DNA of 64,000 nucleotides from Escherichia phage E26. How positions within the stretch are numbered: the first letter of the stretch is position 1; every line of letters begins with the position of its first letter. The position numbers and the translations under genes were made by a program. The notes under the pieces were generated by a model, which saw only the letters and a program-made list of their open reading frames with translations, was not told the origin of the DNA and ran no database searches. Location of the stretch: the sequence record MN655998.1; one strand, given 5' to 3'. This document shows positions 41,086 to 44,668 of the stretch, one piece after another.

Positions 41086-41679
41086 TTACTTGTCAAATAC
41101 TTTATTAATTATATCTAACAACTTTGGTTTTCTATTTTCAAATTCTAACATTTCTTCGGGAGAAATGTCAACTACTTCTGTTTTATGAAAGAAATCAGGA
41201 TCTATTGCATCGGCAACAAAGTTTCTAGCTAACGCAGCGGCCTTTTCGTAATCATAAAGACCTAGATACAAAAGTTTCCCTCTATCAACCTGAATACATG
41301 CTTTATATTTACCATCTCGTTTATAAAAACTTACTCCGATATACTCAGACGTCTTACCTTTTTGCTTTCCAACATTTCTTGAGTTTTGTTGGTCGGTCGC
41401 ATCTCTCAAGTTTTCAATCCGATTATCGGTTATAACTCTGTTTACATGGTCAACACATTTTGGCATATATCCATGATGCATGAAGAAAATTATTCTATGC
41501 TCTTTGTGCAATCGACCATCAAACTTAACTACTCTATATCCAGTTCTTGGATTTACATAGCCCGCTCTAGATCCGACTTTATGCTTTCGGTTTGTCGATA
41601 TCTTGCGAATCAGCTTACCGTTATCATATTTAAAGAGTTCATGACAACGAGCATACAATTCAGGGTCATATGTTTTCAC
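41086..41679 (-). CDS. HNH homing endonuclease with AP2-like DNA-binding domain
   Basis: HNH core DHVNRVITDNRIENL; YIGVSFYKRDGKYKA AP2-like; occupies the 32/59 junction where T4 carries segG. Confidence 0.65.
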   Translation of the reverse strand: MKTYDPELYARCHELFKYDNGKLIRKISTNRKHKVGSRAGYVNPRTGYRVVKFDGRLHKEHRIIFFMHHGYMPKCVDHVNRVITDNRIENLRDATDQQNSRNVGKQKGKTSEYIGVSFYKRDGKYKACIQVDRGKLLYLGLYDYEKAAALARNFVADAIDPDFFHKTEVVDISPEEMLEFENRKPKLLDIINKVFDK

Positions 41680-42352: not shown

Positions 42353-42622
42353 TTAAATATCGAGAGTGTTGGTCGGTTCGTCGATCACTCCCTTCCTGAG
42401 CGTTCTATTTACTATACATTCTTGTGTGATCTTGTCAATAATGGACACCGGAATATACTTCTGATAGTGACCATATTCTATAGAGTTTTCCTCTACAAAC
42501 TGAGTGGTCGCTTCAAGATAAGTCAATCCCTCTTCAACAACCAGTTTTTCGATTGCAAGACCGTTTGCTGTTTTGTTCGCGGCTTTTACCGCATGTTCAT
42601 TAAGCATTGAACACCCGATCAT
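42353..42622 (-). CDS. 33: gp33-like late transcription co-activator (position-based), C-terminal ...PTNTLDI tail
   Basis: Position 59-33-dsbA-rnh as in T4; C-terminal hydrophobic tail resembling clamp-binding motifs. Confidence 0.35.
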   Translation of the reverse strand: MIGCSMLNEHAVKAANKTANGLAIEKLVVEEGLTYLEATTQFVEENSIEYGHYQKYIPVSIIDKITQECIVNRTLRKGVIDEPTNTLDI

Positions 42623-42875
42623 AGAGTTCTACTGCTTCATCGCGTTCTGCTTCGAAGGTTTCGCGCTGTTGCTGGTGATACAGTTTAAACAGAATGCCCC
42701 ACATTTTACCATCTACGCCTAATTCTTCTTTAGCACGCTGTTTGATCTCTTTGATCTTATCGCCATATGCTTCTTGAATGGTTTTCTGATCGCTGGCTTC
42801 TTTAATCAGTTGTGCCAGGGTATTTCCGTGCACTGCTTCGTCAAATACTACTTTTTCTTTTTTCTGTTCAGTCAT
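42600..42875 (-). CDS. dsbA: DsbA-like dsDNA-binding protein (position-based)
   Basis: 91 aa, synteny only. Confidence 0.3.
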   Translation of the reverse strand: MTEQKKEKVVFDEAVHGNTLAQLIKEASDQKTIQEAYGDKIKEIKQRAKEELGVDGKMWGILFKLYHQQQRETFEAERDEAVELYDRVFNA

Positions 42876-42879
42876 AATA

Positions 42880-43476
42880 TTAACCCTCTTTAGTCATTAA
42901 TTGAAAACCACGTTCAGCTTTTGAAATTTCGCTAGGACTTAAATCGTCACCAACATATTCTAGCATCATTTCTCGGATAATGTCAAGTGCTTTTTCATCA
43001 CCTGATTTTAACTCGAACTCAAGTTCATAGTGAGCCTCTCCCATTCTTTCGCCGACTTTACAATAATAGAAAGTGTCTTTGCACATTTCCACTATAGCAC
43101 ACTCAAAGTCAAGTGTCAATGACTTGCGGTATGTCATTACTTGCAATAAAGGAACGATAAGGTCGGAGTTTACGCCTAGACTATCAACATAGTGATAGAA
43201 ATCATCCGTTGTTGAAAAAGTAATTTCTTCTCGGTTGAATAGTCCAGATTCACTATCACCTATTTTGACCATGATCAATGATCTGTTAACGTCAAGTCGA
43301 GCATAAATTCCTTTTCGACGCAGTGCATGATCTTCGGTATCATAATAAAATTCGTGTTTTAATATGTTATATCGATCGACGAGATTGTACCCGTCATACA
43401 TTGCTACCCACAAATCACAGATGGTTTCGACGCCAATTGGTGATTGTGCATAGTATTTTAATTCAAGTTCTTTCAT
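42880..43476 (-). CDS. CYTH / triphosphate-tunnel-metalloenzyme-like protein
   Basis: N-terminal ELELK (ExExK) box, central RRKGIYAR, C-terminal YELEFELK (ExExE); 198 aa; no counterpart at this locus in T4. Confidence 0.5.
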   Translation of the reverse strand: MKELELKYYAQSPIGVETICDLWVAMYDGYNLVDRYNILKHEFYYDTEDHALRRKGIYARLDVNRSLIMVKIGDSESGLFNREEITFSTTDDFYHYVDSLGVNSDLIVPLLQVMTYRKSLTLDFECAIVEMCKDTFYYCKVGERMGEAHYELEFELKSGDEKALDIIREMMLEYVGDDLSPSEISKAERGFQLMTKEG

Positions 43477-43486
43477 ATGTCAACCC

Positions 43487-44434
43487 TTAGAACTCACCAA
43501 TTTTCTGCAACATTTTAACTAACGCATTTGTTACAAAATAGTTATAAATTTTACCGCGTGGTGCTGGTTTAGATTTTTCCCATGCTAACAAAATTTCATA
43601 TTCGATGTTATCAGGAATAAATTCAAAATCAATAAGTTCGCGGTTTTCGTCAAAGCGTCGTGCTTCTTCCTCTGTCATCAAAGACTTTGGATCTTCGGCA
43701 TCGAAAATTTGCTCTAACCATTTGGTTGCAATTGGTTTAGCTCGTTCACCTTCCAGCCGTGAGATAATGAAATCACTACGGCACTTGATAGAAGCTACAC
43801 CGTCTTTTGCGTCACCCTTAACACATTTTACCATAAGGTCTTTGTAAGGACTACCATATTTGCATTTCTTCCATGCTTTCTGTACTGGTGCCCACTGTTT
43901 CACATTTTTGTATTTGTGCAACTGTGTGTAGTCACCATCGCCGGAGTTGATTAGCACCTGGCGACCTTCTACAGAAAACTTTTTAGTTAATACAGCGATT
44001 ATATCATCTGCTTCAACTTTGTCAACCTTAATAACGTGATAAGGCATGTTCTCTTTAAACTCTTCGGTGATCTTATTGATCGCAGCAAAGATCATCTCCC
44101 AATCACGCGGATCTGCGTCTCGTTTTTCCTTACGGTTGCGTTTATAGTAAGATGCGATATCACGTCGCCAGTAACCTTTGCTTGAATCAAAGGCAAGTAC
44201 CGTAATTGGGTATTGCTCTTTGAATTTTGTCATATTATAACGCATGGTGTCAAGGATAAGATGACGGATCATGCCTTCATTAATAGGATCTTCCGGTTTA
44301 AAGGTATGCGAGATAGTAGCAATCATAAGCTGCGACATATCAATCAAATGCACACCGTCCGGTAGTTTATCTTCTGGATCATCGAAGAAATCATTAAGTG
44401 TAGCGGTAGTTTTTGTAAACGGGTTATAAGTCAT
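43487..44434 (-). CDS. rnh: RNase H / FEN-like 5'-3' exonuclease
   Basis: 315 aa; IDMSQLMIATI, VLAFDSS, INSGDGDYTQL acidic-cluster motifs as in T4 RNase H. Confidence 0.85.
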   Translation of the reverse strand: MTYNPFTKTTATLNDFFDDPEDKLPDGVHLIDMSQLMIATISHTFKPEDPINEGMIRHLILDTMRYNMTKFKEQYPITVLAFDSSKGYWRRDIASYYKRNRKEKRDADPRDWEMIFAAINKITEEFKENMPYHVIKVDKVEADDIIAVLTKKFSVEGRQVLINSGDGDYTQLHKYKNVKQWAPVQKAWKKCKYGSPYKDLMVKCVKGDAKDGVASIKCRSDFIISRLEGERAKPIATKWLEQIFDAEDPKSLMTEEEARRFDENRELIDFEFIPDNIEYEILLAWEKSKPAPRGKIYNYFVTNALVKMLQKIGEF

Positions 44435-44436
44435 AA

Positions 44437-44622
44437 TTAAGTTCTCTCCACTCTCACAACAACATATTCACCAAACGAGTTAGATACTTCACGGTCATAC
44501 CCGTACTTCTCCATAACTCGCAGAATTGCATTGTTTAATTCGGCACGGAAATAATTATAATCCTTATCAGGGATTCTGTCAACTACCCATTTTGCACCGT
44601 CTGACAAATCAAATTTAACCAT
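44437..44622 (-). CDS. hypothetical protein (61 aa)
   Basis: ORF track. Confidence 0.4.
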   Translation of the reverse strand: MVKFDLSDGAKWVVDRIPDKDYNYFRAELNNAILRVMEKYGYDREVSNSFGEYVVVRVERT

Positions 44623-44660: not shown

Positions 44661-44668
44661 TATAAATA
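44661..44668 (+). promoter_or_regulatory. late promoter TATAAATA upstream of gene 34
   Basis: Exact TATAAATA ~28 nt upstream of ATG, RBS AAGGAGA. Confidence 0.55.

Follow-up and report, generated by a model that had tools for sequence, protein, structure and literature searches.

The 64,000-nucleotide stretch of Escherichia phage E26 analysed here (sequence record MN655998.1; the whole stretch is called the window) carries on its minus strand, inside a block of replication genes, a gene of 198 codons that a preliminary description had placed between dsbA and rnh and assigned to the CYTH / triphosphate-tunnel (TTM) enzymes. Judged from its sequence and from a predicted structure, the product is a genuine, intact triphosphate-tunnel (CYTH) phosphohydrolase, closest to YgiF of E. 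coli. The position of the gene agrees with the list of open reading frames (ORFs), with the Pfam and PHROG assignments of its neighbours and with its presence at the same place in 58 of 58 Krischvirus records; T4 indeed lacks a gene here, its rnh being followed by dsbA across 8 bp. The locus is organized as follows.

43487..44434, minus strand: rnh, T4-type RNase H / 5'-3' exonuclease, the next gene upstream, with the same orientation (Pfam PF09293, PF02739).
43477..43486, minus strand: rnh-CYTH junction of 10 nt, TAA GGGTTGACAT ATG, with a Shine-Dalgarno-like AAGGG (sequence).
42880..43476, minus strand: CYTH/TTM gene, 198 aa plus stop, orthologue of RB49p245 / RB49ORF244c (ORF list, Pfam PF01928, PHROG 14893).
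42600..42875, minus strand: dsbA, downstream neighbour, starting 4 nt past the CYTH stop (Pfam PF11126).

The encoded protein begins with MKELELKYY and ends with ...SKAERGFQLMTKEG, and the PHROG 14893 match spans its full length. CYTH (PF01928) is the sole Pfam match, at 27.6 bits for a gathering cut-off of 23.2, and searches with NCBIfam and PADLOC gave no matches. In pairwise phmmer, the top PDB sequence match is E. coli YgiF (E 0.038). A profile of phage and bacterial relatives reaches YgiF at E 3e-54, and the hhalign comparison of a phage-only profile with a profile of YgiF plus bacteria gives 99.85% probability and E 6e-31 over 187 columns. The AlphaFold2 model obtained from a 32-sequence alignment (predicted local distance difference test, pLDDT, 94.5; predicted template modelling score, pTM, 0.87) displays eight long strands and four main helices, as expected for the eight-stranded antiparallel beta-tunnel fold of the CYTH/TTM superfamily. 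Foldseek ranks YgiF first in the PDB (E 4e-13, query template modelling score, TM, 0.80), and the other 47 significant matches are nearly all TTM/CYTH enzymes, with a few Mediator Med18/20 structures that have the same fold. The single CYTH domain proposed earlier is thus borne out by the Pfam score and by hhalign. The Foldseek and profile comparison suggested with it confirms the family, and the lack of a tunnel fold, named beforehand as the finding that would overturn the proposal, is not what the predicted structure displays.

The residues involved in catalysis by YgiF have been described by Martinez et al. (2015, PMC4641920). Metal 1 is coordinated by Glu-160; metal 2, whose task is to activate the attacking water, has Glu-4, Glu-6 and Glu-162 as ligands. 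The invariant Arg of catalysis is Arg-56, and Lys-69 aids substrate binding. The metal-1 Glu is invariant across all TTMs (PMC4641920, PMC8233210). The corresponding residues and the other tunnel residues of the phage protein are encoded at the following positions.

43456..43470, minus strand: N-terminal ExExK box E3, E5, K7, equivalent to YgiF E4/E6/K8, both Glu predicted by homology to bind metal 2 (alignments, PMC4641920).
43291..43305, minus strand: Y58-A-R60-L-D62 in strand 3, R60 equivalent to the YgiF catalytic Arg-56, D62 in place of the second RxR Arg (hhalign register, MAFFT).
43264..43266, minus strand: K71, counterpart of YgiF Lys-69, which takes part in substrate binding and orients the first Glu; invariant (alignments, PMC4641920).
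43225..43233, minus strand: R82-E83-E84 in strand 5, R82 and E84 being invariant tunnel residues (alignments).
43075..43128, minus strand: R117 in strand 6 and E130/C132/D134/F136/Y138 in strand 7 (alignments, strand conservation).
43006..43026, minus strand: E151-L-E153-F-E155-L-K157 in strand 8, E153 equivalent to YgiF Glu-160 and E155 to YgiF Glu-162 (alignments, PMC4641920, PMC8233210).
42907..42924, minus strand: S185-K-A-E-R-G190, C-terminal plug helix, K186 and R189 invariant (alignments).

According to the profile-profile register and MAFFT, phage and bacterial relatives alike keep E153, E3, E5, E155, R60 and K71 invariant, and also K7, Y44, D46, R82, E84, R117, D134, E151, K186 and R189. 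The two motifs singled out from the start, ELELK as the ExExK metal box and a C-terminal YELEFELK as ExExE, both stand: E3-L-E5-L-K7 is invariant in all relatives, and E153/E155 align to YgiF E160/E162. Conservation along the strands alternates with residue parity, with an entropy of 0.09 at even versus 0.78 at odd positions in strand 57-62 and of 0.39 versus 1.25 in strand 127-140, which is the signature of a conserved inward-facing lining.

Several tunnel-facing positions are specific to the phage clade. Position 62 is Asp in 93% of this clade and Arg in 93% of bacteria, and the phage-clade residues K40, C132, F136 and A59 replace the bacterial Leu, Ala, Gly and Leu, respectively. In strand 7, C132, F136 and Y138 are phage-clade specific, whereas E130 and D134, like R117 in strand 6, are common to bacterial relatives. 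The phage clade also has the extra aromatics Y8, Y9 and Y138, to which Krischvirus adds Y58, located at the aromatic position of the thiamine-triphosphatase W/YxRxR motif (PMC8233210) and replaced by Ser, Val or Ile in deeper relatives of the clade. Compared with YgiF, two residues are deleted in a hairpin turn. Pairwise phmmer had set Tyr58 opposite the catalytic Arg-56, implying a crippled hydrolase or a "sponge". This register was rejected because R60 takes that place in the profile-profile alignment and in two MAFFT alignments, and its distance from the YYDT anchor agrees.

The window belongs to the RB49/JSE/phi1 group of Krischvirus, as megablast gives 96-98% identity over the stretch with 58 phage records. 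The CYTH gene is confined to these 58 Krischvirus records, whereas dsbA is found in 1,400 phage records, and the use of a 37%-identical relative as query led to the same result; a scan of viral_contigs gave only two loci. Relatives at 58%, 57%, 45%, 37% and 30% identity, from phage Skers and metagenome contigs, all lie between rnh and dsbA. Since this position is kept down to 30% identity, the synteny identifies the gene as an old accessory gene that the Krischvirus lineage has passed on vertically. Among bacteria, the nearest relatives are stand-alone CYTH proteins of about 190-205 aa and about 30% identity, such as those of Caulobacter sp. (P0068) and of a metagenome (P0064). In both of these, the two examined, the gene stands directly upstream of that of S-adenosylhomocysteine hydrolase rather than in a replication block, and a radical-SAM/BATS gene is close by (L018/L019 5001-5582, L020 5001-5582). 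Given that S-adenosylmethionine (SAM) synthetase generates tripolyphosphate, this adjacency hints weakly that the enzyme could be linked in function to the SAM cycle.

Beyond dsbA, the locus continues with gene 33, gene 59, an HNH-AP2 endonuclease gene and gene 32 (Pfam or PHROGs). The HNH-AP2 homing-endonuclease gene (41086-41679, minus strand), nested between genes 59 and 32, is also found in Skers and is missing in RB49, phi1, GEC-3S, Brandy, JK32 and GoldenSnicker, in which gene 59 directly adjoins gene 32. On the other side, a 61-aa ORF of unknown function (PHROG 3594; 44437-44622, minus strand) lies between gene 34 and rnh in every Krischvirus locus examined, and T4 has no annotated gene at that spot.

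Most of the CYTH gene is occupied by one further feature.

43027..43460, minus strand: island of allelic divergence, codons ~6-150 (sliding identity against nine loci, codon comparison, synonymous divergence).

Sliding-window comparison with nine Krischvirus loci gives 95-100% identity across rnh, the final 48 CYTH codons, dsbA and gene 33. Within the island, compared with loci L001, L004, L007 and L009-L013, identity is 36-63% in the Skers and P0042 type and 71-96% in the phi1/Brandy/JK32 type, and at least four allele classes are found. Synonymous divergence (dS) in the island is saturated for two allele types (Skers, P0042) while it amounts to 0.08-0.2 in the flanks, so ancient alleles have been recombined into a conserved backbone. 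The island junctions coincide with the two most conserved motifs, ExExK and ExExE. The ratio of nonsynonymous to synonymous divergence (dN/dS) is 0.19-0.45 in the island, 0.04-0.13 in rnh and 0-0.13 in dsbA. The island is under purifying selection that is 3-5 times more relaxed than in its neighbours, and the variation sits on helices, loops and outward strand faces. Extreme purifying selection on the last ~50 residues, near-identical among 56%-identical homologues, was considered and rejected in favour of a recombination boundary because the DNA there is 96-99% identical with almost no silent changes; the truly diverged P0043 has normal silent divergence in this C-terminal region. A second small mosaic patch lies in the 3' part of rnh (43620-43680), with about 70% identity to Skers, RB49, phi1 and GEC-3S and 96-100% to Brandy, JK32, GoldenSnicker, L004 and L007.

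In the deposited genome of the viable phage vB_EcoM_G2494 (L021, MK327935.1), a one-base deletion at codon 59 (locus nt 575, window ~43302) breaks the CYTH gene into two ORFs, one of 66 and one of 130 aa, and the 130-aa product is also present in protein databases (P0035; BFVD A0A482GBZ4). If this frameshift is not a sequencing error, the gene would be dispensable for plaque formation.

Between 42300 and 44800, the minus strand, which is the gene strand, carries 19 sigma-70-like near-consensus promoter matches versus 7.8 +/- 2.9 expected, including eight exact TTGACA hexamers. One candidate promoter (43483-43455) straddles the CYTH start codon and another (42986-42957) lies within the conserved 3' end of the gene, about 80 nt upstream of dsbA. 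A TTGACA at the rnh-CYTH junction is also found in loci L014 and L015, and the upstream sequence of the latter, a metagenome locus, displays the same junction. Nearby, the T4-type late motif TATAAATA has a single occurrence, at 44661 before gene 34, on the plus strand. On account of this enrichment and of the position of the late motif, the CYTH gene is probably transcribed early by the host RNA polymerase, together with rnh and dsbA. The three genes are closely spaced, with Shine-Dalgarno sequences at both junctions, which fits an operon-like arrangement. The ribosome-binding site of dsbA (AAAGAGGG) sits inside the final CYTH codons (AAA GAG GGT TAA; 42880-42890 / 42873-42875), an overlap that may add conservation on the low-confidence C-terminal tail K196-E197-G198.

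By analogy with YgiF, the phage protein is likely an active TTM hydrolase with a small, tripolyphosphate-like substrate. YgiF is a specific tripolyphosphatase, activated by Mg2+ and inhibited by Ca2+, which hydrolyzes thiamine triphosphate slowly and is inactive on ATP, GTP, ITP, pyrophosphate and long polyphosphate. In the proposed mechanism, a triphosphate with Mg2+ or Mn2+ would enter the eight-stranded beta-tunnel, where its phosphates would be bound by K7, K71, R82, R117, K186 and R189. Metal 1 would be held by E153 and metal 2 by E3, E5 and E155, the latter metal activating the water that attacks the terminal phosphate, while R60 would polarise the beta-gamma bridging oxygen, with orthophosphate and diphosphate as predicted products. 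The default substrate, taken from the nearest relative, would be inorganic tripolyphosphate or a similarly small triphosphate.

Several points weigh against this reading. E. coli pyrophosphatase gives most of the cellular tripolyphosphatase activity, which does not decrease in a ygiF knockout, and a plain tripolyphosphatase seems redundant for a coliphage because the host has both YgiF and pyrophosphatase. At D62, K40, F136, C132 and Y58 the phage clade departs from the bacterial consensus, so the substrate may not be tripolyphosphate. The protein also lacks a CHAD domain. The promoter calls consist of consensus matches only, and the predicted spatial clustering of the Glu boxes follows from superposition statistics and strand parity rather than from measured distances. 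A literature search found no experimental study on any phage CYTH protein.

Because the host activity makes a plain version redundant and the tunnel residues have changed in the phage clade, a different triphosphate substrate is a serious possibility. It is conceivable though unlikely that the TTM hydrolase has been retuned to an organic triphosphate, the candidates being NTPs or dNTPs, signalling or alarmone nucleotides bearing a triphosphate, linear precursors of cyclic-oligonucleotide defence signals, and thiamine triphosphate, and the same holds for the role it would then serve, nucleotide-pool editing or counter-defence, with the allele island as a trace of host conflict. The tunnel changes R->D62, L->K40, G->F136 and A->C132 and the aromatics Y8, Y9, Y58 and Y138 fit such retuning, as do the host activity that makes a plain version redundant and the deep alleles recombining into a conserved backbone with a dN/dS 3-5 times that of the neighbours. 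In thiamine triphosphatase, the residue at the position of Y58 is a Trp that stacks on the thiazole ring (PMC8233210), but Y58 is not kept deeper in the phage clade. Iyer et al. (2021) have speculated that phage CYTH triphosphatases degrade unmodified NTPs, whereas YgiF does not act on the nucleoside triphosphates listed above. No overall positive selection is seen (dN/dS below 0.5), and the outward faces and loops vary rather than the tunnel. The Krischviruses SAP and TB34 are 99.96% identical and only SAP has fully modified cytosines, by an unknown pathway (PMC13390438); both share one allele, so the CYTH gene was rejected as the cause of this difference. In its more specific form, the Krischvirus clade would have turned a YgiF-type tripolyphosphatase into an enzyme for another organic triphosphate, such as a dNTP or a nucleotide of host stress or defence. 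The substrate switch would then be explained by the RxR->RxD change and the new Lys40, Phe136 and Tyr58, and an ongoing conflict with the host would have left its footprint in the sharply bounded island of ancient alleles, a scenario that we regard as rather improbable.

The conserved adjacency to rnh inside the replication block, together with the Cet1, mimivirus and vaccinia RNA triphosphatases of TTM fold among the structural neighbours, evokes an RNA 5'-triphosphatase working with RNase H and stripping the triphosphate from primase-made pppAC primers or from transcripts. Neither a profile match to Cet1-like RNA triphosphatases (Pfam PF02940) nor the closest structural class points there, and there is little chance that this is the function. 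Four GenBank records bear the automatic label "adenylate cyclase" and the fold is common with YpAC-IV, but a class IV (CyaB-type) adenylate or nucleotidyl cyclase, making cyclic AMP or another cyclic nucleotide in the infected cell, is very hard to sustain. Class IV cyclases carry HF four residues before ExExK, a small residue for the first RxR Arg and Ala for the second ExE Glu (Vogt et al. 2021, PMC8233210). The phage protein has none of these three marks, as its ExExK starts from residue 3, leaving no room for HF, and R60 and E155 are retained. Thiamine triphosphatases carry W/YxRxR (Vogt et al. 2021, PMC8233210), whereas Y58-x-R60-x-D62 lacks the second Arg and loses its aromatic in deeper relatives. 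The YgiF type (cluster 1 of PMC8233210) has a strand-3 RxR pair, here R60-x-D62, and a CHAD domain at its C terminus, whereas the phage protein stops just past the plug helix. Sequence and model therefore describe a CYTH-family two-metal TTM hydrolase that is neither a canonical YgiF nor a cyclase, a thiamine triphosphatase or a Cet1-type RNA triphosphatase. The preliminary description, with its options of class IV adenylate cyclase, inorganic triphosphatase and RNA triphosphatase, is partly supported: the CYTH family is retained, with YgiF as the nearest branch, whereas the cyclase and Cet1-like options find no match.

The CYTH identification is correct but not new, being on record since Nolan et al. 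(2006) listed RB49ORF244c as a CYTH domain with a Pfam E of 0.0026. The RB49 RefSeq entry remarks "similar to ... ygiF", in several GenBank records the gene goes under "inorganic triphosphatase" or "adenylate cyclase", and Iyer et al. (2021) mention CYTH triphosphatases in jumbo phages. The annotation itself is ordinary. Besides excluding the cyclase label, which it corrects in some GenBank records, the present analysis adds a map at residue level, the tunnel changes specific to the clade, the allele island and the depth to which the synteny reaches, and it is the tunnel residues, not the fold, that raise the question. After two decades, the physiological role of CYTH/TTM enzymes and the existence of free cellular tripolyphosphate remain unclear (PMC8233210 and the YgiF tripolyphosphatase study). 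The phage copy offers a clean in vivo system, with probably early expression, a tractable coliphage group, an apparent natural frameshift mutant and several natural alleles. If an organic triphosphate were the substrate, a triphosphate-tunnel enzyme would for the first time have a defined role in phage infection, and the physiology of the CYTH family would become more accessible.

Among known systems, the class IV adenylate cyclases (CyaB, YpAC-IV) have the superfamily and the tunnel fold in common with the phage protein, at a structural similarity much lower than that of YgiF. Mammalian thiamine triphosphatase also has the tunnel fold, and its W/YxRxR motif has Y58 as the phage counterpart of the W/Y position. 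Other phage CYTH proteins, from Aeromonas phages (Aeh1 ORF004c, 65.2, D3), Klebsiella phage Eowyn and jumbo phages, are of CYTH fold and unknown function; they were not recovered by tblastn and, because their identity to the phage protein is at most 16% (TM at most 0.54), they are probably separate acquisitions. The uncharacterised stand-alone bacterial YgiF-like CYTH proteins resemble the phage protein in their single-domain architecture, length and invariant residues but, unlike the phage clade, keep RxR and the bacterial tunnel consensus. The N-terminal CYTH domain of E. coli YgiF (PDB 5a60/5a61), an inorganic tripolyphosphatase, is the best sequence, profile and structural match. The phage protein differs from it by the lack of the CHAD domain and linker (198 aa versus 433), by an identity of 23-24%, by a beta3-beta4 hairpin two residues shorter and by K40, C132, F136, Y58 and Asp62. 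What the two have in common is the pair of metal sites, the catalytic Arg and Lys-69, as well as the ELExELKSGD strand and the SKAxRG plug helix.
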